Source of the DNA: a virus
Virus record (IMG/VR): IMGVR_UViG_3300000271_000006
Location: 1-64,000 of that record
DNA: 64,000 nt
Direction: 5' to 3' (one strand)
Part shown: piece after piece, positions 1 to 47,760 of the stretch
How the letters are laid out: the number at the start of each line of letters is the position of its first letter
How positions within the stretch are numbered: the first letter of the stretch is position 1
Program-made: the position numbers and the translations under genes
Notes under the pieces: generated by a model
Seen by the model: the letters and a program-made list of their open reading frames with translations, nothing else
Database searches by the model: none
Told to the model about the DNA's origin: nothing

Positions 1-480
1 GTGGAGTTCCAGCCCCTTGACCCCCTTGGCAATCAGGAGGTCAACGGCCTTGTTTGTGGCGGCGCCCGCCGTGGCTCCGTGGATTTGGGAGGGACGCGAA
101 GCGGAATGGCTGGCCGGCGCTGCGGCTTGGGCAGGCGGAGGAGTCGTTCCCTTGGATTGGTGGTAGACCTCCACGAACTGGAACTGGCCAGACTTGTTGA
201 CGTGAAGCTCTTGGGTTGTCTTCCCGTTGTACTCGTTCAACTTGGTGAACAAGCCCTGCCCGGCGGCATTCGCGTGAATGACAACGGTCTTCCCCTCCAT
301 CTTGGAAATGTCGGAGTGCTTCCAGACCACCAGCTTGATTTCGCCCGATGGGTCGGCAACAATCGCATTCTGGGGGGCACTAGGGTTGTCCTTCTTGGGA
401 TAGACCTTTTTGAGGGTCACGGAAACCTCGTCAACCGGAGATTCGGGCGGGAGGTTTTTTACATCACTGAGTTTCATCAT
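1..480 (-). CDS. OB-fold-like protein, possible ssDNA-binding protein (partial, runs off window start)
   Basis: Own translation of the minus strand from ATG 480 gives MMKLSDVKNLPPESPVDEVSVTLKKVYPKKDNPSAPQNAIVADPSGEIKLVVWKHSDISKMEGKTVVIHANAAGQGLFTKLNEYNGK..., open to nt 1. It is absent from the ORF track because there is no in-window stop. ATGA overlap with the stop of ORF 477..962. Function is guessed from the beta-rich N-domain plus Pro/Ala linker. Confidence 0.4.
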   Translation of the reverse strand, partial: MMKLSDVKNLPPESPVDEVSVTLKKVYPKKDNPSAPQNAIVADPSGEIKLVVWKHSDISKMEGKTVVIHANAAGQGLFTKLNEYNGKTTQELHVNKSGQFQFVEVYHQSKGTTPPPAQAAAPASHSASRPSQIHGATAGAATNKAVDLLIAKGVKGLELH

Positions 481-962
481 GTTGTTTTTGTTTCAGGTTC
501 AGGACTGAAATACTGGATCATACTCATGCTCCGCAAGCCCAAATGTCCAAGCAACGCCTTCTTTGGCTGTTTTTGTGGTCGGGGGCACGCGCAGGTGTTC
601 GTCCTTGGTCGCGATGCCGTAGCTCCGCCCCATTGGGCCGGTGCCTTGGCCGTTGAGTGCGCCGAACTTTCGGAGCGCCACGAGCGCAGCCCCCTTGCCG
701 CGTCGCCCAGCGGCTTTTCGATTGCACCGAACATGAAGACGATCGCATTGAGCGCCTGGGCCTGTGTCTTCGCCGCAACCCGAGGCGCCATGTCCTCGAG
801 CCAGGCGCGCACCCGTTCCTCGTTGGTCGAGTCGCGGTGGTTGCGCGCAACGAAGTCAATGAAGTCACGGGCGCGGGAGCAATATACAAGCTCCGTGTTG
901 TAGCTGAGGTGGCGGGTGCGGCAGACCGCCTGCATTCGGTTGATGATTTCTGACTTTGTCAT
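477..962 (-). CDS. Tyrosine-recombinase N-terminal SAM-like domain protein (IntI/XerD-type N-domain only, no catalytic domain)
   Basis: ORF track 477..992. ATG at 962 gives MTKSEIINRMQAVCRTRHLSYNTELVYCSRARDFIDFVARNHRDSTNEERVRAWLEDMAPRVAAKTQAQALNAIVFMFGAIEKPLGD, which fits the YS.RTE..Y..W...FI.F...E.V..FL..L...V...T..QAL.AL.F.Y pattern of integron-integrase/Xer N-domains. The remaining ~75 aa are low complexity, and no catalytic R..HxxR..Y region appears in any frame downstream. Confidence 0.5.
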   Translation of the reverse strand: MTKSEIINRMQAVCRTRHLSYNTELVYCSRARDFIDFVARNHRDSTNEERVRAWLEDMAPRVAAKTQAQALNAIVFMFGAIEKPLGDAARGLRSWRSESSAHSTAKAPAQWGGATASRPRTNTCACPRPQKQPKKALLGHLGLRSMSMIQYFSPEPETKTT

Positions 963-988
963 GATATAGGGGAAAATCGGCAGGATAA

Positions 989-1336
989 TCACTGGTTAGC
1001 CTTGGCGTGCGTGAGTCGGATAAAGACGATGCTCCCGGCCCCCTCGCCGATGTCCCACTCGTAGTGCCACGGCTCCCACGCTGCGTGCCACCAGTTGCCC
1101 TTGTCGGCCACATCCGCGACGAAGTCCGCGAGCTGATCATCTGGGGCATCACTGAGTCCGTGTAGCCACTGCGCCTCGGCCCAGAATCGTGCGACCTCGT
1201 CGCCCTTGATTTGCTCCGTCTTGTAGGACTCGCTGTCCGCGACGACAGCCAGGAGATCTAAACCGGCTAACCATGCGTCCACAGCCAACGCCGGGGATTG
1301 TCCGGCCGGCGATTGAGTTTCACTTTTCATCTCCAT
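989..1336 (-). CDS. hypothetical protein (accessory cassette ORF)
   Basis: ORF track, 115 aa. The ATG lies in the loop of structured repeat 1265..1395. The N-terminus MEMKSETQSPAGQSPALAVDAWLAG follows the leader pattern imposed by the repeat. Confidence 0.55.
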   Translation of the reverse strand: MEMKSETQSPAGQSPALAVDAWLAGLDLLAVVADSESYKTEQIKGDEVARFWAEAQWLHGLSDAPDDQLADFVADVADKGNWWHAAWEPWHYEWDIGEGAGSIVFIRLTHAKANQ

Positions 1337-1395
1337 AGAGTGCTGTCTTGAGGTTATTGGTTTTCGCCCGGCGTCGGCTGATACGCGGTGTTCTG
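1265..1395 (-). repeat. attC-like structured inverted repeat (copy 1)
   Basis: Gene-sense reading: CAGAAC-n9-CAGCCGACGCCGGG-[loop with ATG 1336]-CCCGGCGTTGGCTG-n10-GTTAGCC. 14-bp stem including one G.T. Confidence 0.65.
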
Positions 1396-1962
1396 CTGAT
1401 CGAGTTTCGCGAGGATCTGGCGCCCGAGAGCGTGCAGGTCGCTGAAGTATTTTTCGGAGTTGCGCCGCTCGTATTCGCGCTCAAAGACACGGCCGGACCA
1501 CTCTTCCCATCCGCGCGCAGAAATCACTTCGGACATCGCGCGGCAGTCGTCGTCGCTCGCCGGGTCGAACCCGTGTTCGGTGAAGTGGTCCACCTCGGCC
1601 TCGCACCCGTAGTTTGTGAGCGTGTTCGACAGCAGTTTTCCGCAGCCCTCGCAGAACGGCGTAGAGTCGCCCTCGTTACCCCAGCCCCCATCGACCAGCC
1701 ACTCGCCTTCGGGATCGGCCTGCTTGAGCTTCGCGATTTCCTTTTCCGCGCACTCGTAGCAGTAGCTTGTGCTCTCGTCGTGATCGCGATTGCTGCCGCA
1801 TATCCAGTGCTCCGGCGCAGCGGGCACGCGGGCCGCGCCTGCATCGAAGAGTTGCACCAGTCGTGCACGTTCGGCCTCAGACAACGGAGGCAGAACCAAG
1901 TGCCCAGAGCCAACAGGCACCGGCTGTCCGTTTTCGAGATTCATTTCAGTAGAGGAGATCAT
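1354..1962 (-). CDS. Cys-rich hypothetical protein (accessory cassette ORF)
   Basis: ORF track, 202 aa, with CYEC and CEGC pairs. ATGA overlap with 1959..2354. An alternative ATG at 1944 (MNLENG) lies inside the loop of repeat 1891..2004. Confidence 0.6.
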   Translation of the reverse strand: MISSTEMNLENGQPVPVGSGHLVLPPLSEAERARLVQLFDAGAARVPAAPEHWICGSNRDHDESTSYCYECAEKEIAKLKQADPEGEWLVDGGWGNEGDSTPFCEGCGKLLSNTLTNYGCEAEVDHFTEHGFDPASDDDCRAMSEVISARGWEEWSGRVFEREYERRNSEKYFSDLHALGRQILAKLDQQNTAYQPTPGENQ

Positions 1963-2004
1963 TGGATTTTCTGCGGTGCCTGCGGCTCATGCACGGCGTT
2001 CGGG
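1891..2004 (-). repeat. attC-like structured inverted repeat (copy 2)
   Basis: CCGAAC-n9-GAGCCGCAGGCACCG-[loop with ATG 1962/1944]-CGGTGCCTGTTGGCTC-n9-GGTTCTG. 5+9 bp stem. Confidence 0.7.
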
Positions 2005-2354
2005 CAAGAGGGCTCGACCATCTCGCAGGCGACCGCGAGGAGCACGACGGGCGAGTGGCCGTCATCGCTCATCTCCTTTGCCACGGGCAGCACGGTTTTG
2101 AGCACGTTATCAGAGCCCTCGTCTTCCATCAGCGCCTCGATTGCCGGGCGGATTTCACAGACCTTATCAGGCCATTTGTCGCCAAGCAGGCGCTTCACGC
2201 CGTCGCGCGTTTCAATGAGTTTCTCGGAGACACGGAGTGCCCGAACCAGTCCGCCAAAGCCAATTCCGGCCCGCGTGCCCGCGTCCGGCTGCTGCGTGTC
2301 ATGTCCCATATCAGTGTCCTTTCGTTTGGTTGTGATGGGCCGGAATCGGCTCAT
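1959..2354 (-). CDS. hypothetical protein (accessory cassette ORF)
   Basis: ORF track, 131 aa. The ATG at 2354 is part of the conserved GATGAGCC of repeat 2240..2368. An alternative ATG at 2309 (MGHDTQQ) lies in the repeat loop and may be the true start. Confidence 0.5.
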   Translation of the reverse strand: MSRFRPITTKRKDTDMGHDTQQPDAGTRAGIGFGGLVRALRVSEKLIETRDGVKRLLGDKWPDKVCEIRPAIEALMEDEGSDNVLKTVLPVAKEMSDDGHSPVVLLAVACEMVEPSCPNAVHEPQAPQKIQ

Positions 2355-2368
2355 CGGAATTGTTAGGC
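2240..2368 (-). repeat. attC-like structured inverted repeat (copy 3)
   Basis: GCCTAAC (its TAA is the stop of 2363..2692)-AATTCCGAT-GAGCCGATTCCGGCCC-[loop]-GGGCCGGAATTGGCTT-n9-GGTTCGGG. ~15 bp stem. Confidence 0.7.
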
Positions 2369-2705: not shown

Positions 2706-2773
2706 GCCTAACCAGCGATTACACACAACCTCCGGAGCTTCGCTCCTCCGGTGTGTGACCCGCGGTGTTAGCC
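2706..2773 (-). repeat. attC-like structured inverted repeat (copy 4, short loop)
   Basis: GGCTAAC (its TAA is the stop of 2768..2974)-n9-CACACACCGGAGGAGC-gaa-GCTCCGGAGGTTGTGTG-n9-GTTAGGC. Confidence 0.7.
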
Positions 2774-2981: not shown

Positions 2982-3069
2982 GGCTAACAAGTAGATGGAG
3001 CCAAGCCGGATACCTGTCACGGCGAGCGAGAACCGCCGTCCTCCGGCTGGTTCATTATGGTGTTTCGCC
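2982..3069 (-). repeat. attC-like structured inverted repeat (copy 5)
   Basis: GGCGAAAC..-GAACCAGCCGGA-[loop]-TCCGGCTTGGCTC-CATCTACTT-GTTAGCC. One mismatch plus one bulge. It ends 7 nt before ATG 2974. Confidence 0.55.
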
Positions 3070-12931: not shown

Positions 12932-12983
12932 TAGTTAAACTTATTCACTACACGTCGGCATATCCGCCTTGTTGGGCGAAGAA
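12930..12983 (-). repeat. 54-nt segment shared (inverted) with 32715..32768
   Basis: Minus reading TTCTTCGCCCAACAAGGCGGATATGCCGACGTGTAGTGAATAAGTTTAACTAAT versus plus-strand TTCTTCGCCGAAGAAGGCGGATATGCCGACGTGCAGTGAATAAGTTTAACTAAT. Three to four mismatches. Confidence 0.85.
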
Positions 12984-13310: not shown

Positions 13311-13684
13311 CACGACGCAGGCCCTCCCTCGCCACGGTTCACGCGATCCACTTCGTCTTCGACTTCTGGTGGGCATTGCGAGAAGTCCGCGTGCTTCGCC
13401 ACGAGCGCGATCACCCGGCGAAGATCTGCCAGTTGGTGCTCCTGCCATTCGACGGTGAGTTGCTTGTCGCGCTCTCCACACTTGTGAGCAGTCACCTCAC
13501 GCTCCAGCTTTTCGAGCGTATGGATTGCGCGGAATAGCGTGAGCGTTACGGGGTGTTGGTTCGCACGAAATTCGGCAGCCCACTCGCGGAGGTTGTCCAC
13601 GACATAAGGCACGCCCAACAAATCGCCAGAGACCAACGCGGGCCGCTCCACGGCCTGCGGATGTTGTGATGAGTTCGATTGCAT
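13310..13684 (-). CDS. hypothetical protein (accessory ORF)
   Basis: ORF track, 124 aa. The ATG lies in the loop of repeat 13614..13738. Confidence 0.6.
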   Translation of the reverse strand: MQSNSSQHPQAVERPALVSGDLLGVPYVVDNLREWAAEFRANQHPVTLTLFRAIHTLEKLEREVTAHKCGERDKQLTVEWQEHQLADLRRVIALVAKHADFSQCPPEVEDEVDRVNRGEGGPAS

Positions 13685-13738
13685 AGAGTGTTGGATTGAG
13701 TGAGAGCCCGGCCCGCGTGGCTCAGCCTTGGATGTTAT
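13614..13738 (-). repeat. attC-like structured inverted repeat (copy 6)
   Basis: GAGCCACGCGGGCCG-[loop with ATG 13684]-CGGCCCGCGTTGGTCTC-TGGCGATTT-GTTGGGC. 15 bp with two bulges. The stop of 13722..14051 lies at the 5' arm junction. Confidence 0.7.
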
Positions 13739-14051
13739 CTACACGCAGACGTTGCAGTCGCTCGATTTCCGCGACGATCAGAGCGCCCGCCTTCTCCAGA
13801 TTGCGGATCGGGTCGTCACTCGGCTTCCACCACGCATCGGCCCACGGCCAGACGCGCACCTTGTGCGTGACGTTGGGGCGCTTTCCATCGATCACATGTG
13901 GGTTGTCGAAGCCGCAAGCGGCGAGCGCGTAGATTGCGGCAGCCCCGGCCATTTCACCGAGCTTGTGGTTGTCGTCGTGAGAGGGCGTCCAGCCCTTCAC
14001 GGAGATTTGCCGCGCGCGTTCGGCGGCGATTAGTTCGAGTGCGTTTTTCAT
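13722..14051 (-). CDS. hypothetical protein (accessory ORF)
   Basis: ORF track 13722..14069. ATG 14051 gives MKNALELIAAERARQISVKGWTPSHDDNHKLGEMAGAAAIYA... It starts 10 nt after repeat 14062..14163. Confidence 0.65.
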   Translation of the reverse strand: MKNALELIAAERARQISVKGWTPSHDDNHKLGEMAGAAAIYALAACGFDNPHVIDGKRPNVTHKVRVWPWADAWWKPSDDPIRNLEKAGALIVAEIERLQRLRVDNIQG

Positions 14052-14061
14052 ACAAAAGAAA

Positions 14062-14163
14062 GATAACAAATTACTAGAGCGAACCCGGTTGACTGTTGCA
14101 GTTTGCGCTAGGCACGGCCACGGGCGCTCGATTCTGGCCGGGTTCGCTCAGTATGGTGTTCGG
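14062..14163 (-). repeat. attC-like structured inverted repeat (copy 7)
   Basis: CCGAAC-n8-GAGCGAACCCGG-[49-nt loop with the stop of 14108..14464]-CCGGGTTCGCTC-TAGTAATTT-GTTATC. Perfect 12-bp stem. Confidence 0.7.
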
Positions 14164-14464
14164 CCGAGGTGTCCGGCTTCTTGAGTTCCCAGTAGTAGCA
14201 AGCGCCGTGGGTGTTGAGGTTTTCGAGTGCGGCTGCGTAGAGAGGCGCGACATGTTTGCGCACGGCTTCGAGGATCGGCTCCCTGGCGTCAGCCTCGATC
14301 TCGTATTGCTCTTTGGCCACGTAGCCTTTTCGCGGCATGAAGTTGTCGGCGGTCCATCGCCACTTCGGAGATTCCTCGTCGGGTTCAGTGAGGAAGCTGT
14401 TCACCGGGATGTTTGCATCATCGGCGCCGGCGATTTCGATTGTGCCTTTGTCTTCGTAGTTCAT
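14108..14464 (-). CDS. hypothetical protein (accessory ORF)
   Basis: ORF track, 118 aa. It starts 28 nt after GTTAGGC of repeat 14493..14583, and its stop lies in the loop of repeat 14062..14163. Confidence 0.6.
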   Translation of the reverse strand: MNYEDKGTIEIAGADDANIPVNSFLTEPDEESPKWRWTADNFMPRKGYVAKEQYEIEADAREPILEAVRKHVAPLYAAALENLNTHGACYYWELKKPDTSAEHHTERTRPESSARGRA

Positions 14465-14492
14465 TTGGATTTCGTGAGGTTCTTTTTCGGAG

Positions 14493-14583
14493 GCCTAACC
14501 AGGCGAGACACCCAATTCGCATAGCTCACCGGTCCGGCGAGCTAGCATCAGGGGCTGCGAATTGGGTGCTCTTGTTGTTAGGC
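14493..14583 (-). repeat. attC-like structured inverted repeat (copy 8, canonical core boxes)
   Basis: GCCTAAC-AACAAGA-GCACCCAATTCGC-[34 nt]-GCGAATTGGGTG-TCTCGCCTG-GTTAGGC. 12-bp perfect stem. The boxes fit RYYYAAC / GTTRRRY exactly. Confidence 0.8.
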
Positions 14584-14946: not shown

Positions 14947-15002
14947 GCCTAACCAGCGCATGGAGCCAATTCGCTTCGCTCATGGCTCATGGCATTGTTC
15001 GC
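14947..15002 (-). repeat. attC-like structured inverted repeat (copy 9, short)
   Basis: GCGAAC-AATGCCAT-GAGCCA-[14 nt]-TGGCTC-CATGCGCTG-GTTAGGC. Near-identical twin at 37211..37265. Confidence 0.6.
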
Positions 15003-15188
15003 TTGTGTATGACGCTCAATCTTAGCGCGCGCAGACTCAAGATTGCGGATGGCCTCGTCAATCCAAGCCATGGATTCGTTCCATTGCCCATCTTTCCATT
15101 CCTCTTCGGCCATAAACACATCGGCTCGGGCTCCTCCGAGATTTAGGTAGGCGGATTCTATACATGGAATAGGTTCGTTCATCGGCAA
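14949..15188 (-). CDS. hypothetical protein (first early-left ORF)
   Basis: ORF track, 79 aa. The C-terminus is encoded by repeat 14947..15002. Confidence 0.55.
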   Translation of the reverse strand: MPMNEPIPCIESAYLNLGGARADVFMAEEEWKDGQWNESMAWIDEAIRNLESARAKIERHTQANNAMSHERSELAPCAG

Positions 15189-19454: not shown

Positions 19455-21365
19455 ATGGAGATCAAGGAAGCAGCCAAGATACGGGACTACATCGTCAAGG
19501 GCGAATGGGTGATGGCGGCAAACTTCACCCTAAGCCTCATGGGGAAGGACCCCATCGTTGAAACTAAGGATGATGCCTTGGTGGTTCTGCGCGGCCTGCT
19601 TCAGCACCTCCTTGACAGCGAACTTTATCTCCACGCCGGAACGCTTCTTTGGGGTCCGGAAATGTTTTGCGCGGAACCCAAGTTTGTTCAAGACGTCTTC
19701 CGCATCCTTCACTCCGAGGCAAAGATACTCATTCAGGGGGCCGCGTCAACGGGCAAGTCGTATAATGCAGGTGTTTGGATGTACCTTGATTGGAGGCGCG
19801 ACCCAGAATACACGTCAATCAAGTGCATTGGTACGTCAGAGGATCAGGTGCGAAAGCATGTATTTGCCCACTTGGTAAAGCTCCACAGGGCAGCATGTAT
19901 CCCCATGGAGGAGGAGGTCATTATCCGCGACTCGGATATGTGGCTCGGGGTCAAGGGGGCTGGATTCGAGTTTGGCATTACGTCAATCGCCTACAAGCAG
20001 TCACAGGAAACGTCGGGCGCGGTTAAGGGATACAAGTCCATGCCGGTCCGCACCCATCCCCACCCAAAGTTTGGGCTTTTTAGCCGCCTTCGCCTACTTG
20101 CTGACGAGGCTCAAAATATTCCCGGCGGCCCATTCCAAGACCTTAACTCATGGGTCAGTCAAATTGATGGAACTGAATTTGTTAAGATCGCGCTCGCGTA
20201 CAACCCCGAGGACGTAACGCGCACGGTTGTAACAATGGCCGAACCTGAACAGGGCTGGGGCATTGAAGACTTGGATAAGCTCTACGAGTGGAAGTCCAAA
20301 GCCGGTTGGAATGTGCTTAGGCTTGATGCCGCAAAGTCAGAAAACGTCATAGCCAAGCGCAAGATTTACCACGGCATTCAGTCCTATGAAGGCTTCATGG
20401 GATATATCCTTGCCGGCGGAGATACTTCGGCTTCGTATATGTGCTTTGGTCGAGGATTTCCGCCAACCAAGGGCGTCAGCAACACAATCATCCCCATGAG
20501 CTGGCCACAAGAAGCGCGTGGCGAAGCAATCTTCATCGGCGTCCCAGAGAACGTAGCCGCCGTTGACTTGGCATTCATGGGCATGGATAGCGCCCAAATG
20601 GCCGTTGGGCGATGGGGTCTCGCGTCCGGCTACCGCGTAGAAGCACCCAATACCCTAGAGGGATATAAGGTGGTGAACTTTACAAGCCGTCTCAATATCT
20701 CCAAAAAAGAACCCCGTCACGTCTTGCAGCTTGACCAAGTGATACCAATGGAAAAGCATGACGACACGGTAATGATGGCCGAAGAGATCATGGGCCGGTG
20801 CAACATGCTTGGCATCAAGCCAGAATGGGTTGGTGTGGATTGCACGGGAATCGGTCTCGGAACCCACTCTCACCTCAACAAAGTTTGGGGCGATGTTATG
20901 GGCATAGCTTGGAATACGATGGCGTCGGAAAAGAAGATTCTAGCCGAAGACAAGCAGAATGCCCGCGAGACGTGCGACGGAGTAATGAGCGAAATGTGGT
21001 ACGCGTTTCGGCGCTGGCTTGACCCGCGAGTCAAAGCGGTTCTAATAAACCCCATCATCCCGCAAACCCCGCTCAATAGCCAGCTAACCACCCGCCGCTA
21101 TAGCACCGGTAAAAACGGGATCAAGGTTGAGTCAAAGGAGCAATACAAGGCCCGCAACCAGCGATCGCCAGACGAGGCGGATTGCGCAATCATGCTTTGC
21201 CATGTGGTGCGGATGCGGGCGGAAGTAACCCCTGGGCTTGTCGAGGAAACCAAGCCCAGCCACAATACCGTACAAAGAGATGAAGGAACTGGCTTTACTC
21301 CCGTAACCAAGCGGGAATCAGTTGACGCAGAGGACTCAATCTGCAAGGATGGGGTTGATGGCTAA
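19455..21365 (+). CDS. terL: terminase large subunit
   Basis: ORF track, 636 aa. Walker A-like LIQGAASTGKSYNAG, Walker B-like LRLLADEAQNIP, and a C-terminal nuclease-like VDCTGIGLG. AAGGAG is 6 nt upstream of the ATG. Confidence 0.85.
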   Translation: MEIKEAAKIRDYIVKGEWVMAANFTLSLMGKDPIVETKDDALVVLRGLLQHLLDSELYLHAGTLLWGPEMFCAEPKFVQDVFRILHSEAKILIQGAASTGKSYNAGVWMYLDWRRDPEYTSIKCIGTSEDQVRKHVFAHLVKLHRAACIPMEEEVIIRDSDMWLGVKGAGFEFGITSIAYKQSQETSGAVKGYKSMPVRTHPHPKFGLFSRLRLLADEAQNIPGGPFQDLNSWVSQIDGTEFVKIALAYNPEDVTRTVVTMAEPEQGWGIEDLDKLYEWKSKAGWNVLRLDAAKSENVIAKRKIYHGIQSYEGFMGYILAGGDTSASYMCFGRGFPPTKGVSNTIIPMSWPQEARGEAIFIGVPENVAAVDLAFMGMDSAQMAVGRWGLASGYRVEAPNTLEGYKVVNFTSRLNISKKEPRHVLQLDQVIPMEKHDDTVMMAEEIMGRCNMLGIKPEWVGVDCTGIGLGTHSHLNKVWGDVMGIAWNTMASEKKILAEDKQNARETCDGVMSEMWYAFRRWLDPRVKAVLINPIIPQTPLNSQLTTRRYSTGKNGIKVESKEQYKARNQRSPDEADCAIMLCHVVRMRAEVTPGLVEETKPSHNTVQRDEGTGFTPVTKRESVDAEDSICKDGVDG

Positions 21366-21473
21366 CTCCTGAGATGAGCCACGAGCCCGCAGAAAACTCT
21401 ATGGAAACGACAACTCAAAAACCACCCGAAAACGTACCGGCTGCGAGCGTTGGCTCTGGACGGCTGGTTCGGC
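21361..21473 (+). repeat. attC-like structured inverted repeat (copy 10)
   Basis: GCTAAC (its TAA is the terminase stop)-TCCTGAGAT-GAGCCACGAGCCCGCAG-[loop with ATG 21401]-CTGCGAGCGTTGGCTC-n10-GTTCGGC. Confidence 0.65.
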
Positions 21474-21742
21474 TCCGTCTTTTTTTGGCGCACGGGACGG
21501 CCGGTGCGCTCGGCTTCATGCCCCACCAAAGGACAGGCGTGAAGGACACAGCGAAAAACCTGATATGGCTCCCCAAGCAGGCGGTGAACATAGTGCGTCA
21601 ATCCCCGGCCAAGGCGTGGACATGGCGGGAAACAGATTTGGAGATATGTTCAATCTTCGCTCGCAGGAAGGGGCTGCTGCCCTACGCCTTGCCGAACGGT
21701 CGGGATGAGCCGCGAGCACAGCGCGAAAACAAAAACACATGA
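21401..21742 (+). CDS. hypothetical protein (accessory ORF)
   Basis: ORF track 21374..21742. The in-frame ATG 21401 (METTTQKPPENVPAASVGSGRLV...) lies in the loop of repeat 21361..21473, as in the paralogous leaders. The sequence is of low plausibility. Confidence 0.4.
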   Translation: METTTQKPPENVPAASVGSGRLVRLRLFLAHGTAGALGFMPHQRTGVKDTAKNLIWLPKQAVNIVRQSPAKAWTWRETDLEICSIFARRKGLLPYALPNGRDEPRAQRENKNT

Positions 21743-21809
21743 GCACTCACGCAAATGAATCGAGCACCAAGGGGCCGCTGTGCTCGTTGGCTCTGGCACA
21801 TGGTTCGGC
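21691..21809 (+). repeat. attC-like structured inverted repeat (copy 11)
   Basis: GCCGAAC-GGTCGGGAT-GAGCCGCGAGCACAGCG-[loop with ATG 21739]-CGCTGTGCTCGTTGGCTC-TGGCACATG-GTTCGGC. 5+11 bp stem, and the outer boxes are perfectly complementary. Confidence 0.8.
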
Positions 21810-22035
21810 AATCGTGCGCCGCGCTACATTCTGGAGCGATACCGGACTGGCTATCGCCGCTCGCCAATGCTTCGGAAGCAATGCGGATGTAGGAGGGTGG
21901 AATAGCCCAATCGACATCTGGGACGAAAAGGCCGCAGACCTCGTGGCTTTCTGTGAACTGGTCGATGAATGGCCGGTTACGATGAGCTTGCCGAACAACA
22001 TGATATGCGAATCTCATGAGAATTTGAATGGCTAA
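21739..22035 (+). CDS. hypothetical protein (accessory ORF)
   Basis: ORF track, 98 aa. The ATG lies in the loop of repeat 21691..21809. Confidence 0.45.
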   Translation: MSTHANESSTKGPLCSLALAHGSAIVRRATFWSDTGLAIAARQCFGSNADVGGWNSPIDIWDEKAADLVAFCELVDEWPVTMSLPNNMICESHENLNG

Positions 22036-32243: not shown

Positions 32244-32284
32244 GGCGAACATCCGGGATTAGGGACGCGCCGGTACTGCCTCCC

Positions 32285-32394
32285 CCGAACTCCTGAGATG
32301 AGCCACACGGCGCGAAAACTTTATGGAAACTCAAACTAAAAAAACCACCGGAGAAGGACAGACCGCCGTGTTGCGCTCTGGCGATTTGTTCGGC
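32285..32394 (+). repeat. attC-like structured inverted repeat (copy 12)
   Basis: CCGAAC-TCCTGAGAT-GAGCCACACGGCG-[loop with ATG 32323]-CGCCGTGTTGCGCTC-TGGCGATTT-GTTCGGC. 13 bp with two bulges, and the outer boxes are complementary. Confidence 0.75.
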
Positions 32395-32757
32395 GAGACC
32401 GTCCGCAAGCACAACCTCGCGGTCGAATCACTGACAGAGCAACAGCTCGCTGAAGTCATCCGTCAGGCTATCGCATCCGGTGACATCGTGCGGAACGTGA
32501 CGCACGACGGCTCCGCGCAGGCGATCACCTACATCCCATATCGCGAGGTCTCGCGCCTGCGGGACCAGTATCACGAACTACTCTATGCGGTCGCCAGCAA
32601 GCATGACGGCGAGACGCGACACGAGACAGCCCTGCGCTACATCAAGGAGCGCGAAGACCACTCGTGCGGCGACTGCGATCCGTGCTTGGGTGGGCGACCC
32701 GACCAATGCGCTCTTTCTTCGCCGAAGAAGGCGGATATGCCGACGTGCAGTGAATAA
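32323..32757 (+). CDS. hypothetical protein (single accessory cassette ORF)
   Basis: ORF track, 144 aa. The ATG lies in the loop of repeat 32285..32394. The C-terminus KKADMPTCSE is encoded by the shared 54-nt segment. Confidence 0.5.
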   Translation: METQTKKTTGEGQTAVLRSGDLFGETVRKHNLAVESLTEQQLAEVIRQAIASGDIVRNVTHDGSAQAITYIPYREVSRLRDQYHELLYAVASKHDGETRHETALRYIKEREDHSCGDCDPCLGGRPDQCALSSPKKADMPTCSE

Positions 32758-32768
32758 GTTTAACTAAT
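32715..32768 (+). repeat. 54-nt segment shared (inverted) with 12930..12983
   Basis: See the partner entry. It forms the promoter-distal end of the single-cassette insertion after 31524..32243. Confidence 0.85.
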
Positions 32769-36720: not shown

Positions 36721-36870
36721 ATGAATACTACGAATCGACTCGGGCCACACGCACCCGAAACACAGAAGGTGCTCGACGCCGGGCTGCACGAGCGAGCGGC
36801 TGATCTGCCGCCTGAGTTGGCACAATGGCGCGATGCTGCTCCCGACAGCCCGTTTCCGCCGAACTCCTAA
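36721..36870 (+). CDS. 49-aa ORF (accessory array D, d1)
   Basis: ORF track 36670..36870. ATG 36721 comes directly after the upstream stop. Its TAA stop lies in the spacer of repeat 36859..36957. Confidence 0.35.
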   Translation: MNTTNRLGPHAPETQKVLDAGLHERAADLPPELAQWRDAAPDSPFPPNS

Positions 36871-36957
36871 GATGTGCAAGATGCACCAACTCTATCACTC
36901 TATAAAAAACACTAAAAACGTCCGCTGGTGCATCTTGGCACTGGCGATTTGTTCGGC
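36859..36957 (+). repeat. attC-like structured inverted repeat (copy 13)
   Basis: CCGAAC-TCCTAAGAT-GTGCAAGATGCACCA-[37-nt loop, no ATG]-TGGTGCATCTTGGCAC-TGGCGATTT-GTTCGGC. 15 bp with one bulge. Confidence 0.75.
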
Positions 36958-37138
36958 CTTCTGCGCGTCCGGCTGTATGGATTCACGCACGCTAGCCAAA
37001 GATGCGCCAGAAGTTCTGCAAACCATCGAACTGCAAGGCTGTGAATACTTCTTCACGGAGTTCAGTGCCCGCCAATCCAACAACTATGCGGTGGCGATCA
37101 ACGCCTCGGCCGAGGCGGAGGGGGAAGTGTTTGGGTGA
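36872..37138 (+). CDS. putative secreted protein or lipoprotein (d2)
   Basis: ORF track 36833..37138. MCKMHQLYHSIKNTKNVRWCILALAICSAFCASGCMD has a signal peptide with an imperfect lipobox (ASGC). The signal peptide is encoded by the 3' arm of repeat 36859..36957. Confidence 0.5.
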   Translation: MCKMHQLYHSIKNTKNVRWCILALAICSAFCASGCMDSRTLAKDAPEVLQTIELQGCEYFFTEFSARQSNNYAVAINASAEAEGEVFG

Positions 37139-37210
37139 ACCATGCGGAAGAGGCGTCTCTCATGGTCCAGAATTTCTGTCAGCCAACCGAAAATCAAAAA
37201 TCCAATACAA

Positions 37211-37265
37211 TGAACAATGCCATGAGCCATGAGCGAAGCGAATTGGCTCCATGAGCTGGTTGGAC
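37211..37265 (+). repeat. attC-like structured inverted repeat (copy 14, short)
   Basis: GAACAATGCCAT-GAGCCA-[14 nt]-TGGCTC-CATGAGCTG-GTTGGAC. An alternative upstream 5' arm CAGCCAAC-CGAAAA lies at 37180. Confidence 0.55.
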
Positions 37266-37594
37266 TCCGTAATAACTTTTTAAATACAATGAAAGCATCC
37301 GATTACAAAATGACCGTGAATCAGCGCATCGAGGTCGAGCATCTGACCGAAAGGGCGCAGGACGATCTAGAGTCCACGCTAGCTCGCCTGGTGTGCCAGC
37401 GCGACCTAGCAATAGAGGGCGCAACCAAGCAAAAGGCCGAATCCGACGATCAGGCCCAATGGGCCAAGGATGCCAGCGCACGAATGAACCGCATGGAAGA
37501 CGCCATCCGCGCGGTGCTGGCGGTCAATATACCGCTGCCGTCTGGACTCGGGGCGCAACTCTGCAACGCCATCGAATACAACGAAAAACCATGA
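37229..37594 (+). CDS. hypothetical protein (d3)
   Basis: ORF track, 121 aa. An alternative in-frame ATG at 37289 (MKASDYK) lies 23 nt after the GTTGGAC box. Confidence 0.5.
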   Translation: MSEANWLHELVGLRNNFLNTMKASDYKMTVNQRIEVEHLTERAQDDLESTLARLVCQRDLAIEGATKQKAESDDQAQWAKDASARMNRMEDAIRAVLAVNIPLPSGLGAQLCNAIEYNEKP

Positions 37595-37986
37595 ACCGAG
37601 AAATCTTTAATCTCTTCGCAGACAACAAACCGCTTCCGAAAAATGCCATGCTCCGAGGCGAACCGATTTCGCGCATCGCACTTGAAAGCGCGAACAAAGT
37701 CCCGAACCACATGAGCGAACACGTTCCGTTCTGGGTGCTCGGTTGGCGTGACCTGCATGATGACCTTACGATCCGCTCAGAAGCTGTCTGCTACGGCGGG
37801 CCGTGGGACGGTCGCGAAGTCATCGACGCGGGCGAATACAAGGCCGAGAAACTCGACCGCCAAACGGGGCTGATCCACGTCTATGAGCGCAGCGCACGCG
37901 GCTTTGACTACCGGGGCACGCAGCTTTTCGGCTCTCTGTCCAACAATAAGCTGACCGGCGCGGGCAGCAGCCCGCGTTCGGTCTAA
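37591..37986 (+). CDS. hypothetical protein (d4)
   Basis: ORF track 37393..37986. ATG 37591 makes an ATGA overlap (MNREIFNLFADNKPLPKN...). Confidence 0.55.
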   Translation: MNREIFNLFADNKPLPKNAMLRGEPISRIALESANKVPNHMSEHVPFWVLGWRDLHDDLTIRSEAVCYGGPWDGREVIDAGEYKAEKLDRQTGLIHVYERSARGFDYRGTQLFGSLSNNKLTGAGSSPRSV

Positions 37987-38006
37987 CGCCTTGTTCGCCA
38001 ATTTTT

Positions 38007-38333
38007 ATGAACACCGAAGGACCTCGAAAATTCACTATTCCGCGGCGCTCCGTAACCGAATGCGGAGCCTGCAAGTATCACGTCTGTCATAGCTCTTTCC
38101 ACACCCGTAGCGGATCGGGCGGGTGGCGCGATTATGCCTGCTCGCATCCCGACGCATTCAAAGACGAATCGCTTGTCGGCGTGGCACCGGAAGAAAACGC
38201 GGCGCTCGTGGCGCACATCGCCGCGATTGAGAAGCAGAGCTACGGGGGCCGGCTGATTGGTCGCACCGAAGCGACGCCCAACTGGTGCCCATATTTGGCG
38301 AACACCAAGGTGAGCCACACGGCCGGGAAATAA
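38007..38333 (+). CDS. Cys-rich hypothetical protein (d5)
   Basis: ORF track, 108 aa. Its stop lies in the loop of repeat 38297..38418. Confidence 0.5.
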   Translation: MNTEGPRKFTIPRRSVTECGACKYHVCHSSFHTRSGSGGWRDYACSHPDAFKDESLVGVAPEENAALVAHIAAIEKQSYGGRLIGRTEATPNWCPYLANTKVSHTAGK

Positions 38334-38418
38334 CTCTATGAGCAATACAACCGAACAGAAAACCCCTGATGCGAGTAGCGCGGCCAATGGCCGTGTTGGC
38401 TCTAGCGATTTGTTAGCC
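38297..38418 (+). repeat. attC-like structured inverted repeat (copy 15)
   Basis: GGCGAAC-n8-GAGCCACACGGCC-[loop with the stop of d5 and ATG 38338]-GGCCGTGTTGGCTC-TAGCGATTT-GTTAGCC. 13 bp with one bulge. Confidence 0.75.
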
Positions 38419-38554: not shown

Positions 38555-38755
38555 ATGGACTTCTCTGGAATGCCCGGACCGGGCGCTTTCTTCTTCGTCG
38601 CGGCCCTCGTGTGCTCGCTTCTCGCAACTCTCGTCGGCGTGGCCCTAAAGCTCGGCGGCGTGCTCTTGCTCTCGTGGTGGTGGGTGCTTTCGCCGCTGCC
38701 TATTCTGCTCGTGCTGGCGGTAATCGTGGCCGGCCTCGGAGCTTTGTTCGGCTAA
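38555..38755 (+). CDS. two-TM membrane protein (d7)
   Basis: ORF track, 66 aa, strongly hydrophobic. It ends in ...GALFG, encoded by a degenerate GTTCGGC box. Confidence 0.5.
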   Translation: MDFSGMPGPGAFFFVAALVCSLLATLVGVALKLGGVLLLSWWWVLSPLPILLVLAVIVAGLGALFG

Positions 38756-38779
38756 CGACCAAGGTCAGACACGCTCGCC

Positions 38780-39088
38780 ATGAAGAATAATAAAATCCCC
38801 GCGCGTAGAACCAGCTCCCGAAAACGGACGGCTGGCGAGCGTTGTTCTGTAGCGACTGGTTCTCATGCCGTGCGCAAACGGCGGGACTCCTTCGACATCG
38901 GCCAAGCCGCGAGGATCAAGGGACTCAAGCGGATCGATAACCCCTACGAAGGCTTTTCGTATTCGTGGTATGGGTGGGACGCCGGATGGTCTGTCGAAGA
39001 CCAGAATCTCGGGCATGAGAACGCTGAGGTCTCGCACAGAGACCGGGAGCGCCAGCCCGATGCCGATCAACCACCCAAGCAACCCTAA
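38780..39088 (+). CDS. ribosome-modulation-factor (Rmf)-like domain protein (d8)
   Basis: ORF track, 102 aa. FDIGQAARIKGLKRIDNPYEGFSYSWYGWDAGWS fits the G..A...G......NPY.....W..GW pattern of Rmf-like proteins. Confidence 0.45.
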   Translation: MKNNKIPARRTSSRKRTAGERCSVATGSHAVRKRRDSFDIGQAARIKGLKRIDNPYEGFSYSWYGWDAGWSVEDQNLGHENAEVSHRDRERQPDADQPPKQP

Positions 39089-39136
39089 AACTCAACTACA
39101 AGGCGGGTCTCTGTTGCGAGCACCGTTTTGTTCTGC
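39017..39136 (+). repeat. attC-like structured inverted repeat (copy 16)
   Basis: GAGAAC-n8-CTCGCACAGAGACC-[loop with the stop of d8]-GGTCTCTGTTGCGAG-CACCGTTTT-GTTCTGC. 14 bp with one bulge. The arm sequence co-varies relative to other copies. Confidence 0.7.
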
Positions 39137-39168: not shown

Positions 39169-39444
39169 ATGAAAATAAAACAGATTATCGACCGCACGAA
39201 AACCGAATATGAATATTCCGATCCCCACGGATCAGCAACCACAACGCTCGCCGCGCTGAACCTGCTCGCGGAAATCGAGAGGTGGCTATCTGAGGGTGCC
39301 ACGCTAAAGGCCACGAATGCCGATGGATTCGGATTCGAGATATTGGAAGATGGTTCCGTGCGATCTGAAATGACGATCACCGGGGCTAAGGCAGGCGTCA
39401 TCTTGTACCGGCAGAACGTTCCCGATGAGCCACGCGGAAAATGA
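39169..39444 (+). CDS. hypothetical protein (d9)
   Basis: ORF track, 91 aa. It starts 32 nt after repeat 39017..39136. Confidence 0.5.
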   Translation: MKIKQIIDRTKTEYEYSDPHGSATTTLAALNLLAEIERWLSEGATLKATNADGFGFEILEDGSVRSEMTITGAKAGVILYRQNVPDEPRGK

Positions 39445-39500
39445 AGCCTGAACAACACAAGCAGCCGTCGCCCGCGTTGCGCTCTGGCGGGTGGTTGGGG
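39412..39500 (+). repeat. attC-like structured inverted repeat (copy 17)
   Basis: CAGAAC-GTTCCCGAT-GAGCCACGCGG-[loop with ATG 39441]-CCGCGTTGCGCTC-TGGCGGGTG-GTTGGGG. Confidence 0.65.
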
Positions 39501-39641
39501 GCGCCCTCGGCAATCGTCTGCGTGAAGATCGAAGACGACGGCCTTCCTCCGTGCCCTCTCTGCGGAGGACCACTAAAAGACGACTGGCACGGCGTCGCCG
39601 CATGCTTCTGCAACTTCGGCGGGCAACCGCCACGAATTTAA
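39441..39641 (+). CDS. small zinc-ribbon-like protein (d10)
   Basis: ORF track, 66 aa, with CPLC...C.C. The ATG lies in the loop of repeat 39412..39500. Confidence 0.45.
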   Translation: MKPEQHKQPSPALRSGGWLGAPSAIVCVKIEDDGLPPCPLCGGPLKDDWHGVAACFCNFGGQPPRI

Positions 39642-39644
39642 GCC

Positions 39645-39751
39645 CCCAACAGTCGGGATGAGCTAACGGCGCCCCCGACCCCCGACCACAAATGAACTCT
39701 TGCGAAAACCAAGTGAGCCCCGTCGCCGTTAGCTCTGGCCCGTGGTTCGGA
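39645..39751 (+). repeat. attC-like structured inverted repeat (copy 18)
   Basis: CCCAAC-AGTCGGGAT-GAGCTAACGGCG-[loop with ATG 39692]-CGCCGTTAGCTC-TGGCCCGTG-GTTCGGA. Perfect 12-bp stem with a compensatory C>T / G>A change relative to the consensus. Confidence 0.8.
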
Positions 39752-42715: not shown

Positions 42716-44662
42716 ATGGCAGTCCAATATCCTAGCCCGAACGACGGGCCGGCCGATCTTCTCAAGAAGCTCGTTTACAATGCTGCCGAAGGCGGCACAG
42801 GTGGTGGAGGTGGTACGCAGGGAGCACAGGGAGTTCAGGGACCGCAAGGCGATGCAGGAGGCCCGCAAGGGGCACAAGGAGCGCAAGGTGCTCAGGGTTC
42901 GGTAGGCCCACAGGGCGCAACGGGTTCTGGGGCACAGGGCGCTCAGGGTGCAACCGGCGCACAGGGAAGTCAAGGAGCCCAAGGAGCACAGGGCTCGGGG
43001 TCCCAGGGTGCCCAAGGACCACAGGGAGCCGCAAGTGATGCGACGCTGGCCGCAAACCAGACATGGACTGGCAGCAATACGTTCAGCATCAGTCCCCGCA
43101 TAGTCCGGTACAGCCTTGGCTCAGGAACAGCCCTTACGCTTGGGCTCCACTACTACGCCAGCCTTTCGGCCAACCGGACGCTTACCTTTAGCGGAACGCC
43201 GGCAGAGGGGTCTACTACCAGCGTTGTCATTACGACCACGGCCGCAATCACCCTTACGTTCCCGAGTTCCAAGCGGAGCGGCTCGTCTTCAACGCCGATT
43301 ACCTCGATTGCGCTTGAGGGCGCGCAAATCTATACGTTCCTCTGGACCTATGCTGGCGGAGAGTGGGTGCTTGCGGATTCGGTTGGCATTGATGATCCGC
43401 TGGCAACGACAGAGGAAATGGAGTTGCGCACAGAGACGGACCCCCGCCGCATGAGCCCCGCCAACGTTGGCACGGCGATTGATGGGGCATTGCTTGAGGT
43501 TATTTCCACCGACGGCACCTTGGGTGACAACAGCGACAATGTGGTGCCTAGCGAGAAGGCCGTCAAGGCCTACGTTGACAACAACTCTGGCAGTGTGCCT
43601 GACGCGATGTACGTCTTGCGCGAAACCGCAGACCTAGGTACTTTGCCTGCCGGCTGGTATGTAGCCGACGGCACCGAGGGGACCGTTGACCTTTCGCTTG
43701 AGGCGCCCGCTGGCATGACATGGGTGAAGCGCACGCAGGGCCTTGCACCGACAGTCGTGAGCGCGAAAATCTTGGCGGACGGCGAAACGCTTGAGGTGGT
43801 CTTTGACAAGGCCGTCACGGGTAATGGAAGCGGCTTCACGCTAACCCCGAGCGGTGGCGCAGCCGGCCTGAGCTACCTGTCAGGTGATACTACCGCGACG
43901 TGGCGCTGGACCATTGATCGCCCGATTATCGACACCGAGACCGCGACGTTGGGCTACAATGCGGGTGTAGGCAACATGGCTGCGGTCAACAACAGCGTTG
44001 CTCTTGCGACCTTCTCTGGCGAGTCGGTCACGAACAACTCGGCCGAAAGCGGCATCACGTACCTCGTCAACCAGCGCTTCGAGGGTGCTGGGTATGACAA
44101 CGGTGAGACGTGGACCACGTCCGTTGGTACGCCTGACCCCGACTATACTACGACGGTGCTGGATGGCTCGCAGTCGCTCTTCCTCAACCTTGCAACTGGT
44201 ACGCCGGCGCGAATCCGGCTGGACTTCCTCAACCAAGACACGGTCTATTTCTACTGCCTGTTCCGGCTAGTCGGAAGCGCGCCCGGCGGAAACCGCGACA
44301 TCGTTGCGTTCGGTCCGAACGGAAGTGCCGACCAAGACCTGCGCATCGTCGTAACCTCGGCGGGAAGGCTATCGACGCATATCACCGGAGTTAGCCCGGC
44401 AGATGCCCTGAGCTTTGGCACGACCTACCACCTCTGGGCGCGCTACTCGAAGGGGACCGGCTCAGACGCGGTCGTGGAGGTCGCATACTCGACCGACGGC
44501 ACCAAGCCGACTTCCGGCACCAAGTACGCGACGGCGACGAATCTCGCGCACACGGCTCAAGCGGGCCGCGTTTGGCTCGGTTTCAACGCAACCGGAAACT
44601 ACGACGTGATCTTTGATAAGGTTTTGGTGGCGGCGACGGAGATTGGCAGCAACCCGACCTAA
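42716..44662 (+). CDS. collagen-like repeat tail fibre protein
   Basis: ORF track, 648 aa. Gly-X-Y tract over about nt 42794..43027 ([23 protein letters not shown]...). Fibre motif NVVPSEKAVKAYVD. Large beta-rich C-terminal domain. Confidence 0.8.
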   Translation: MAVQYPSPNDGPADLLKKLVYNAAEGGTGGGGGTQGAQGVQGPQGDAGGPQGAQGAQGAQGSVGPQGATGSGAQGAQGATGAQGSQGAQGAQGSGSQGAQGPQGAASDATLAANQTWTGSNTFSISPRIVRYSLGSGTALTLGLHYYASLSANRTLTFSGTPAEGSTTSVVITTTAAITLTFPSSKRSGSSSTPITSIALEGAQIYTFLWTYAGGEWVLADSVGIDDPLATTEEMELRTETDPRRMSPANVGTAIDGALLEVISTDGTLGDNSDNVVPSEKAVKAYVDNNSGSVPDAMYVLRETADLGTLPAGWYVADGTEGTVDLSLEAPAGMTWVKRTQGLAPTVVSAKILADGETLEVVFDKAVTGNGSGFTLTPSGGAAGLSYLSGDTTATWRWTIDRPIIDTETATLGYNAGVGNMAAVNNSVALATFSGESVTNNSAESGITYLVNQRFEGAGYDNGETWTTSVGTPDPDYTTTVLDGSQSLFLNLATGTPARIRLDFLNQDTVYFYCLFRLVGSAPGGNRDIVAFGPNGSADQDLRIVVTSAGRLSTHITGVSPADALSFGTTYHLWARYSKGTGSDAVVEVAYSTDGTKPTSGTKYATATNLAHTAQAGRVWLGFNATGNYDVIFDKVLVAATEIGSNPT

Positions 44663-46919: not shown

Positions 46920-47760
46920 CCTTACGGTCAACGACTCCACTCGCACCGCTATCTATCGCGGAACGCAGGCCCTTGCCCAGCTTTCAGGCTCCCAAGCCCC
47001 CGACCTGCAAAAGGACTCCATCACCGACTTTGAGCGGAAGATGGTTCAGAGCCTCATCAGTCTGGCGAATAGCGGATTCGGTGCTCTGACAGGACCGCAA
47101 GGGTCCCAAGGAAGCCAAGGGATTCAAGGCGCGCAGGGGCCACAAGGCCCATCCGGCCCTCAGGGTGCTTCCGGAGCCCAAGGACCGCAAGGCGTTGCGG
47201 GGTCTCAGGGCAATCAAGGCGCGCAGGGGCCACAAGGAGCCAATCCCGCTGGGGACGTTAACTTTACCTCTATCGGCGCGACGACGCCGGGTACAGGGGC
47301 GTTTACGACGCTGAGTAGCACCACTGGGGCCAACTTTGCGACCACCTCCGGCAACGTCGGTATCGGGACGGCGTCGCCCGTAAATGGGCGGCTGCAAGTT
47401 CAAACCGATACGAACAAAAATGCAGCGTTTATCAATGCTGTGCACGATACTTTTACAAATAACGCCACAGGCATTGGATTTAGCCGGTCTTCGGATGGCG
47501 TCTTTGCTTTAAGTGCCATTTTTGACACTGCCGCCGGCGGGCTGGCCGTTACTGGACGAGAGGGGTTGTTTTTCGCCACGGGCGGGGGTTCTCTTTACAA
47601 CAGTACCGTTGAACACATGCGCATCACAGACGCAGGCAACGTCGGCATCGGGACGACGACGCCCGGAAGCAAGCTGTCCATAGTTGGCTTGCCAACCTCT
47701 TCCGCAGGACTTTCCGCAGGCGATATCTGGAACGACGGTGGAACACTAAGAATAGTCTAA
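46909..47760 (+). CDS. collagen-like repeat fibre protein
   Basis: ORF track, 283 aa. [34 protein letters not shown] tract. The C-terminal domain has GNVGIGT repeats. Confidence 0.8.
   Translation: MIPNLTVNDSTRTAIYRGTQALAQLSGSQAPDLQKDSITDFERKMVQSLISLANSGFGALTGPQGSQGSQGIQGAQGPQGPSGPQGASGAQGPQGVAGSQGNQGAQGPQGANPAGDVNFTSIGATTPGTGAFTTLSSTTGANFATTSGNVGIGTASPVNGRLQVQTDTNKNAAFINAVHDTFTNNATGIGFSRSSDGVFALSAIFDTAAGGLAVTGREGLFFATGGGSLYNSTVEHMRITDAGNVGIGTTTPGSKLSIVGLPTSSAGLSAGDIWNDGGTLRIV

Follow-up and report, generated by a model that had tools for sequence, protein, structure and literature searches.

A nucleotide string at positions 36926-36957 of the window, the 64,000-nt stretch of phage DNA analyzed here, recurs elsewhere in the window with a different coding status from copy to copy. 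As the first-pass annotation reported, the string encodes ..TAVLRSGDLFG in the gene 32323..32757 (copy A below), a version 1 nt shorter encodes ..ILALAICSAF in the gene 36872..37138 (copy B, the flagged locus), and a third version is untranslated (copy G). The locus raises the question of whether the conserved feature is a peptide, an RNA structure or a segment of DNA.

A hairpin element in twenty copies

A covariance model, R1, was seeded on 14 copies of the repeat found by hand. With this model, 20 copies of one structured element were recognized in the window, as opposed to the approximately 10 first noticed, and all of them are co-oriented with the local genes. Their E-values range from 1e-29 to 0.016, and the next-best match has an E-value of 0.27. 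The phage genome is a complete virus record of 69,916 bp with 82-bp terminal repeats, and a search of the remaining 64-69.9 kb with R1 returned zero copies. The 20 copies per genome are distributed over five places in both arms, with nine on the minus strand (F, G, H, N, O, Q, R, T and U) and the other 11 on the plus strand. The copies and the associated genes are as follows; "3′ half" refers to the 3′ arm, spacer and box of the hairpin, and "majority", "+1" and "third" to the frame in which it is read.

Copy A, 32284..32394, plus strand: R1 score 94 bits; ATG at 32323 in the loop; 3′ half in the majority frame (..AVLRSGDLFG).
Copy B (flagged), 36858..36957, plus strand: R1 score 83 bits; 3′ half at 36926-36957, in the +1 frame, ..WCILALAICSAF.
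Small lipoprotein gene, 36872..37138, plus strand: starts inside copy B; codon log-odds +0.14.
Copy C, 21360..21473, plus strand: loop ATG at 21401; majority frame; 5′ box GGCTAAC includes the upstream TAA stop.
Copy K, 21691..21809, plus strand: loop ATG at 21739; +1 frame (..CSLALAHGSA).
Copy V, 37209..37265, plus strand: short loop; untranslated; ATG ~26 nt downstream.
Copy P, 37938..37999, plus strand: 4-nt loop; third frame; ATG of the next gene at 38007.
Copy E, 38297..38418, plus strand: loop ATG at 38338; majority frame (..RVGSSDLLA).
Copy L, 38750..38865, plus strand: loop ATG at 38780; +1 frame; upstream gene terminates within its 5′ box, GGCTAAC.
Copy S, 39016..39136, plus strand: 5′ arm and part of the loop encode the end of the gene 38780-39088; 3′ half untranslated; ATG at 39169.
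Copy D, 39411..39500, plus strand: 5′ half encodes the end of the gene 39169-39444; loop ATG at 39441; majority frame.
Copy M, 39644..39751, plus strand: loop ATG at 39692; majority frame.
Copy F, 13613..13740, minus strand: loop ATG at 13684; majority frame (..ALVSGDLLG).
Copy G (first annotated as intergenic), 14061..14164, minus strand: loop without a start codon; ATG 9 nt downstream of the element.
Copy T, 14493..14583, minus strand: untranslated; boxes GCCTAAC / GTTAGGC; upstream TAA in the 5′ box; ATG at 14464.
Copy U, 14947..15003, minus strand: short loop; untranslated; ATG at 14916.
Copy N, 2982..3068, minus strand: untranslated; ATG at 2974.
Copy R, 2706..2773, minus strand: short loop; untranslated; ATG at 2692; upstream TAA in the 5′ box.
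Copy H, 2240..2368, minus strand: loop ATG; majority frame (..AGIGFGGLV); upstream TAA in the 5′ box GCCTAAC.
Copy O, 1890..2004, minus strand: loop ATG; majority frame (..VPVGSGHLV).
Copy Q, 1265..1396, minus strand: loop ATG at 1336; +1 frame (..SPALAVDAWLA); last copy before the integrase remnant.
Integron integrase remnant gene, 477..992, minus strand: on the same strand as the array and directly downstream of Q-O-H-R-N.

The outer stem of the element is a 7-bp R box with the consensus GCCGAAC / GTTCGGC on the gene-sense strand, in which AAC is retained in 98-100 and GTT in 97-101 of 101 copies. Full-consensus boxes (GCCTAAC / GTTAGGC) occur in several window copies (T, R, U) and in most of the bacterial copies described below; it is the fourth box position that deviates in many phage copies (GCCGAAC / GTTCGGC). 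An unpaired spacer of 8-10 nt per side with conserved letters (..ARGAT / TGGCGNCTG) forms an internal loop of ~9 nt on each side between the two stems. The long inner stem, L, has the arms GAGCCAC.. / ..GT[T]GGCTC, also written GAGCCAC.. / ..GTTGGCTC, and carries an extrahelical T in its 3′ arm at the sixth stem base in 99 of 101 copies, with a second bulge in ~10%. The terminal loop is variable, from 3 to 128 nt.

Outer stem, internal loop and inner stem were all recovered when single copies were folded alone, and the RNA fold z-scores of copies B and G were -5.1 and -4.4, respectively. Among the 14 seed copies, double changes were found at 12 of the 13 inner-stem pairs, and 0 of 500 shuffles scored equally high. 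In 98 distinct copies from ~20 other phage contigs, aligned by fitting to the model, 94.5% of inner-stem cells were paired (slid controls, 30-42%) and 361 cells showed double changes. G-T pairs (58) barely outnumber A-C mismatches (44). Nothing consistent was found when pairing inside the 9x9 internal loop or a kink-turn-like motif was sought, and the whole window gave no match to Rfam at the gathering threshold and none in a tRNA scan. Rfam itself includes no attC family.

Relationship to integron attC sites

Nivina et al. (2016; PMC5027507) describe attC sites as having R boxes (5′-RYYYAAC-3′ / 5′-GTTRRRY-3′), a spacer that is unpaired, a variable terminal structure and extrahelical bases in one of the arms. 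Because AAC/GTT boxes, an unpaired spacer, an extrahelical T and a variable loop are all hallmarks of attC, we consider the element very likely to be an integron attC site, of the type used by the chromosomal integrons of Opitutaceae (Verrucomicrobiota). It was found to fold as an imperfect palindrome, to have the core boxes and an extrahelical base, and to occur in one-strand arrays by intI. Some details differ from the classical site, in which the extrahelical positions are G16/T20/T24 as opposed to the sixth stem base of the phage element. The unpaired spacer of classical attC measures 5-6 nt; that of the phage element, at 8-10 nt, exceeds this and is also conserved in sequence to an unusual degree.

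When prokaryote genomes were scanned with a gapped two-box pattern, most matches came from Opitutaceae and other Verrucomicrobiota. In 26 Verrucomicrobiota loci, R1 detected 127 copies, which form one-strand arrays with as many as 18 copies in 8 kb; it detected zero copies in four non-Verrucomicrobiota loci that had matched the pattern, presumably by chance. An intI gene was present in 4/5 of those bacterial genomes, with scores of 366-379 bits against a TIGR02249 cut-off of 265. Cury et al. (2016; PMC4889954) have already reported integrons in Verrucomicrobia. In sedentary chromosomal integrons, of which the Vibrio cholerae repeats are an example, highly similar attC sites occur every 300-700 nt, on one strand and by intI, and the Opitutaceae arrays fit this description. 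The phage differs from them in that its genes are inverted, its loops carry start codons and its copies are scattered among core phage genes.

The same gapped pattern identified 28 loci in IMG/VR, 23 of which were confirmed by R1 (101 copies with a typical spacing of 300-500 nt), while five had no model match. A full-length intI gene was found in three of 20 related phage contigs (G001, G014 and G020), at 280-313 bits versus the cut-off of 265, which none of the control genomes passed. In three phage loci (L149, L151, L152) and one bacterial locus (L277), the copies are located upstream of intI and share its coding strand. The other 17 of the 20 related contigs show no integrase, and 13 of the 20 records are <90% complete. 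A phage-encoded integrase as the general partner of the element was rejected, as only 3/20 contigs have one. In the genome studied here, only the first ~90 residues of the product of 477..992 are integrase-like (PF13495, E = 1e-14). Its best resemblance is to integron integrases (TIGR02249, E = 1e-10, positions 2-78 of 315), and the single meaningful match in PDB, VchIntIA (2A3V), is weak. The catalytic domain PF00589 is absent from all six frames of the whole genome. What the genome contains, then, is attC clusters and an intI remnant, and not a complete integron with a catalytic integrase.

A 15-mer scan of IMG/VR gave mostly single matches, presumably by chance, and only L042 and L081 recurred in the two-box scan with copies. 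Neither a search of cultured phages with 10 kb of DNA and a 725-aa protein nor a search for relatives with a 436-aa neighboring protein returned a match. A Bacteroidetes-type promoter (TAnnTTTG in the 3′ spacer) was considered and rejected because of misfitting spacing.

Phage genomes, including those of virulent phages, are known to carry attC sites, and clusters of them without an integrase (CALINs), around small accessory genes, and some of these sites are recombined by IntI1 (Qi et al., 2023; PMC9892861). The present genome has in common with them the attC hairpins with AAC/GTT core boxes and the small accessory genes. A CALIN in that study comprises at least two predicted sites, compared with 20 per genome here. 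Two further differences are that the element is conserved across an uncultured phage lineage, three members of which have their own intI, and that the genes are on the bottom strand and start inside the hairpin.

Gene orientation, loop sequences and possible recombination

In the bacterial arrays, 58 of 67 spacers are filled by an ORF that runs antisense to the model, which is the canonical layout. The phage genes, on the other hand, lie on the bottom strand of the hairpin, which is the intI coding strand; this is not the layout of canonical cassettes, and the hairpin therefore precedes its gene. ORF length was rejected as a test of the coding strand in the phage arrays, where about half of the spacers are open on both strands, and codon log-odds and substitution patterns were used instead. 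Codon log-odds were positive for the sense ORFs of this phage and negative for every long antisense ORF. In addition, in two gene pairs compared between phages, only the sense frame was free of stops and had substitutions at third positions. In canonical integron cassettes, the ORF can run into attC, so that the site overlaps the 3′ end of the gene, whereas the phage element supplies the 5′ end. Common to both are a recombination site that overlaps coding sequence, a hairpin in the transcript and side effects on expression; attC hairpins in mRNA reportedly affect the translation of neighboring cassettes.

The loops also differ between the two groups. Bacterial loops are G+C-rich, structured and without start leaders, whereas phage loops contain A-rich leaders and ..ACTCTATG-type starts that match the start context of this phage's other genes, in which no Shine-Dalgarno sequence is used. 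Strict co-orientation with genes and the A-rich ..ACTCTATG leaders indicate that at least the phage loops have been adapted for expression, whereas the arms and boxes are conserved for a function in DNA.

The first-pass annotation had offered a portable translation-initiation structure as an alternative explanation at the RNA level. More broadly, the element could be primarily an RNA structure of phage early mRNAs, acting as an AUG-presenting 5′ module, a translational operator or a processing site. Such a role would agree with the co-orientation of 20/20 copies with genes, at gene starts, and with the placement of the ATG in an unpaired loop after an A-rich ..ACTCTATG-type leader in 11 copies. 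The phage has no Shine-Dalgarno sequences, so local structure could matter for initiation, and the contrast with the leaderless bacterial loops points to phage loops remodelled for expression. However, the arms, spacer and boxes are equally conserved in bacterial arrays whose genes are on the other strand, the element being antisense to the cassette genes in 58/67 Opitutaceae spacers. Moreover, 7/20 phage copies are untranslated, several with loops of 4-13 nt and an ATG 7-35 nt beyond the hairpin, and copy P is read by its upstream gene only. Among 118 phage copies, roughly a third lack a start codon in the loop. The near parity of G-T pairs (58) and A-C mismatches (44) is unlike an RNA helix, and the near-invariance of three helix pairs (AAC/GTT) fits the core site of a protein-DNA interaction. 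The element adjoins integron integrase genes, and it has zero matches to Rfam families. These observations speak against portable initiation as the cause of conservation, and we regard a primarily RNA-level role as quite unlikely. A T7-type RNase III processing site was excluded for copies in which a reading frame spans the 3′ side of the hairpin. As a side effect, the hairpin may influence translation or the stability of the mRNA.

The DNA-level reading favored here, that the element is an attC site, suggests the following mechanism. The selected feature would be a folded single-stranded DNA hairpin recognized by an integron integrase. A gene starts in the loop or 7-35 nt past the hairpin, and the previous gene often ends in the 5′ box or 5′ arm. 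The 3′ half (L″ arm, spacer and R″ box) would then be translated in whichever frame the local start sets, and look-alike N-termini would thereby be imposed on unrelated proteins. If exchange occurs between AA and C of the 5′ box, the hairpin and the downstream gene body would form one cassette, ending in the ..TAA of the next box. We infer that phage copies are still recombined, by phage IntI in the relatives and by host IntI in this phage, and that recombination explains the mosaic boundaries seen at element ends. As examples of such mosaicism, copies U and V, which lie on opposite arms, are 98% identical over 50 nt with the identity confined to the element, and in two pairs the gene body is common from the 3′ box onward and the loop is different; copy F has such a gene body, but not its loop, in common with another phage. 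Several boundaries misfit a simple cassette exchange at AA/C of the 5′ box; these could reflect top-strand recombination, homologous exchange at the arms or rapid turnover of loops.

Alternatively, the copies may be attC sites by descent only, with the integrase inactive in phages and the boxes promoting homologous, microhomology-based shuffling of small genes, as in the promoter-stem-loop cassettes of T4-type phages. This phage and most of the related contigs indeed lack a catalytic IntI, and mosaic breakpoints are not restricted to the 5′ box but fall anywhere in the conserved arms and at both element ends. Homology alone, however, would not need the covariation, AAC/GTT and extrahelical T that are maintained over ~20 diverged contigs. 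Intact intI genes are found beside copies in three phage contigs, and the presumed hosts commonly encode IntI. A relic without integrase activity seems quite unlikely.

Short repeats at the starts of small, fast-changing genes are also known as promoter-early stem-loops (PeSL) in T4-type phages and as start-associated sequences (SAS/ESAS), the latter reportedly in Cluster K mycobacteriophages, and roles in modular shuffling or translation initiation have been proposed for them. Neither is known to have integrase core boxes, a counterpart in host arrays or a covarying 13-bp stem that encloses the start codon, all of which distinguish the element described here.

A more far-reaching version of the attC reading, put forward tentatively as one possibility, is that these phages form a Verrucomicrobiota-infecting lineage with an inverted integron system of its own. 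A remodelled attC would then serve for recombination and at the same time provide the cassette gene with its 5′ leader, start codon and N-terminal segment. Exchange by the integrase, possibly of both strands, would join arbitrary gene bodies in frame to one common leader, to be expressed from phage promoters, and one subfamily would come with a lipoprotein export signal. If this is true, and if the bottom strands are all on what is presumed to be the lagging-strand template, rapid turnover of cassettes would be expected; that orientation has been reported to favor attC folding (Richard et al., 2024). Under the attC reading, integrons would also exist in a phage lineage, with cassette genes in the opposite orientation to attC, and the shared attC type would link this lineage to Opitutaceae hosts. 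Were the sites active, phages and hosts could exchange accessory genes, possibly for defense and counter-defense, through common machinery.

Coding status of the 3′ half and a probable hairpin-encoded signal peptide

A frame census of the 20 copies, curated by hand, placed the 3′ half of eight (A, C, D, M, E, F, H, O) in the majority frame, where it encodes V/L-G/R-S-G-x-L/W. Four copies (B, K, L, Q) are read in the +1 frame and encode Leu/Ala-rich peptides. The third frame is used once, in copy P, where the gene 37591-37986 has its final 16 codons and its TAA stop encoded by the entire hairpin. The remaining seven (G, N, R, S, T, U, V) are untranslated, with the next ATG 7-35 nt past the hairpin, and some of these have loops of only 4-13 nt. 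Even within the majority-frame copies, the frame of the GTT box varies, because the spacer is 9 or 10 nt. The earlier observation that coding status changes from copy to copy therefore extends to three frames plus seven untranslated copies among the 20. Start codons within the loop, counted as nine in that annotation, are real but number 11 (A, C, K, D, M, E, L, F, H, O, Q). At the other end of the element, in copies C, L, H, T and R, the upstream gene terminates at a TAA within the 5′ box (..TAAC), and the 5′ half encodes upstream C-termini in copies D and S. A rough frame classifier applied to 118 copies from this phage and related contigs assigned 37, 23 and 3 to the coding frames and ~35 to the untranslated class; it misassigns some copies (e.g., D), for which reason the 20 copies of the window were curated by hand.

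The phage element supplies up to about 25 N-terminal residues, together with the 5′ leader and the start codon. When the 20 downstream proteins were compared pairwise, no similarity was found at E <= 0.05, and none of them reached the cut-off in a comparison with Pfam. Protein A has 151 homologs; its leader recurs in some of them, and in many a short N-terminus of unrelated sequence is joined to the conserved core at ..DLFGE.

The nucleotide consensus of the 3′ half is identical across frame-1, frame-2 and untranslated copies and has no 3-periodicity. Information per codon position was 1.51, 1.21 and 1.22 bits in frame-1 copies and 1.20, 1.30 and 1.22 bits in frame-2 copies. In addition, the 5′ arm, which is outside the gene that it precedes, covaries with the 3′ arm. 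A consensus common to every class, together with the lack of relaxation at third codon positions, places the conservation at the level of the nucleic acid and not of the peptide, as the first-pass annotation had concluded from fewer copies.

The opposite view, that the peptide is a common N-terminal leader or targeting signal of small phage proteins and that nucleotide similarity follows from it, can draw on the V/L-G/R-S-G-x-L/W motif in one frame in eight copies and on subfamily B, in which three otherwise unrelated proteins begin with an identical 20-residue lipoprotein signal-peptide start, but as a general explanation it is highly improbable and largely refuted by the use of three frames, the seven untranslated copies with the same consensus, the unrelaxed third codon positions, a noncoding 5′ arm that covaries with the coding 3′ arm, the leaderless homologs of protein A and a GTT-box frame that differs even among majority-frame copies. 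Thus, the copies are not all translated in one frame with a conserved peptide, the exception being subfamily B with its plausible lipoprotein signal. In T4-type phages, a capsid-targeting sequence provides unrelated internal proteins with a conserved N-terminus, and there the peptide is selected and one frame is used. The phage element differs in having three frames and untranslated copies with one nucleotide consensus. Look-alike N-termini of this kind would be explained by an overlapping DNA recombination site and not by a common peptide function.

For annotation, the conserved GATGAGCC creates spurious in-frame ATGs, and those noted earlier at 21374 and 2354 are real occurrences. True starts should be sought in the loop or after the hairpin, and stops are possible in the TAAC box. 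What this analysis contributes is the frame census, the test for conservation at the nucleotide level, the link to Opitutaceae and the hairpin-encoded signal peptide.

The signal peptide is encoded in copy B, the loop start of which is mutated: the sequence is CACTCTATA in the window versus CACTCTATG in a 92%-identical copy from another phage (L131:7049-7149). The former loop ATG is now ATA, and the 5′ spacer and 5′ arm contain in-frame ATGs, at 36872 and 36881. The gene 36872..37138 encodes ..ILALAICSAF followed by the lipobox ASGC. The flanks of copy B and of the L131 copy are unrelated on both sides, and L131 was the only hit in a 27-nt scan for more B-type copies. Two database proteins, P0002 and P0003, have identical first 20 aa (MKNTKNVRWCILALAICSAF), each followed by its own lipobox and an unrelated mature part, and their similarity to the copy B product is confined to these 20 aa. 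To judge from these sequences, the +1 reading of the 3′ half in subfamily B probably provides a lipoprotein signal peptide with its n- and h-regions, and subfamily B is probably the sole place where peptide and DNA constraints coincide. Copy B may be a naturally occurring recombination site from which a signal peptide is translated.

Coding strand and coding status of the cassette genes

About half of the spacers between the hairpins (attC-type sites) of the phage arrays contained no stop codons on either strand, so ORF length cannot assign the coding strand there. Examples are:

38000-38296, phage array spacer
1397-1889, phage array spacer
14165-14492, phage array spacer

In the bacterial arrays, a single strand was open. 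The coding status of three cassette ORFs, each named after its hairpin, is uncertain because their codon log-odds were near zero:

21401-21742, cassette ORF C
21739-22035, cassette ORF K
39441-39641, cassette ORF D

Segments shared between cassette genes

Two cassette genes on opposite arms of the genome, dissimilar elsewhere, were found to share a 54-nt stretch (12930-12983 and 32715-32768; 94% identity) comprising their final ~14 codons and 11 nt beyond the stop. Protein A, the product of ORF 32323..32757, gave many short database matches confined to a ..YxELLYAVAxKHxGETRHETALRYI.. segment, which was present in very different proteins.

Gene starts, host and attC distribution

Throughout the window, phage genes lacked Shine-Dalgarno sequences, and their starts were preceded by A/C/T-rich contexts (e.g., ..AACCAAATG or ..CTCTATG). 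These features, together with the shared attC type, are consistent with a Verrucomicrobiota (Opitutaceae) host. Opitutaceae-type attC arrays also occurred in MAG contigs labelled Candidatus Paceibacterota (L156, DASZTF010000128.1; 18 copies in 8 kb) and Gemmatimonadota (L181). Both contigs may be mis-binned; alternatively, this type of attC may have a broader distribution.

Other genes in the window

The primase-helicase at 22937-25855 (Toprim and DnaB_C/AAA_25) contained a LAGLIDADG domain at residues ~598-648, suggesting an intein. Long tracts of collagen-like GXY repeats (42790-43030, 47080-47240 and 52270-54370) were located within several presumed tail-fibre genes, which matched Pfam Collagen and many tail-fibre PHROGs.
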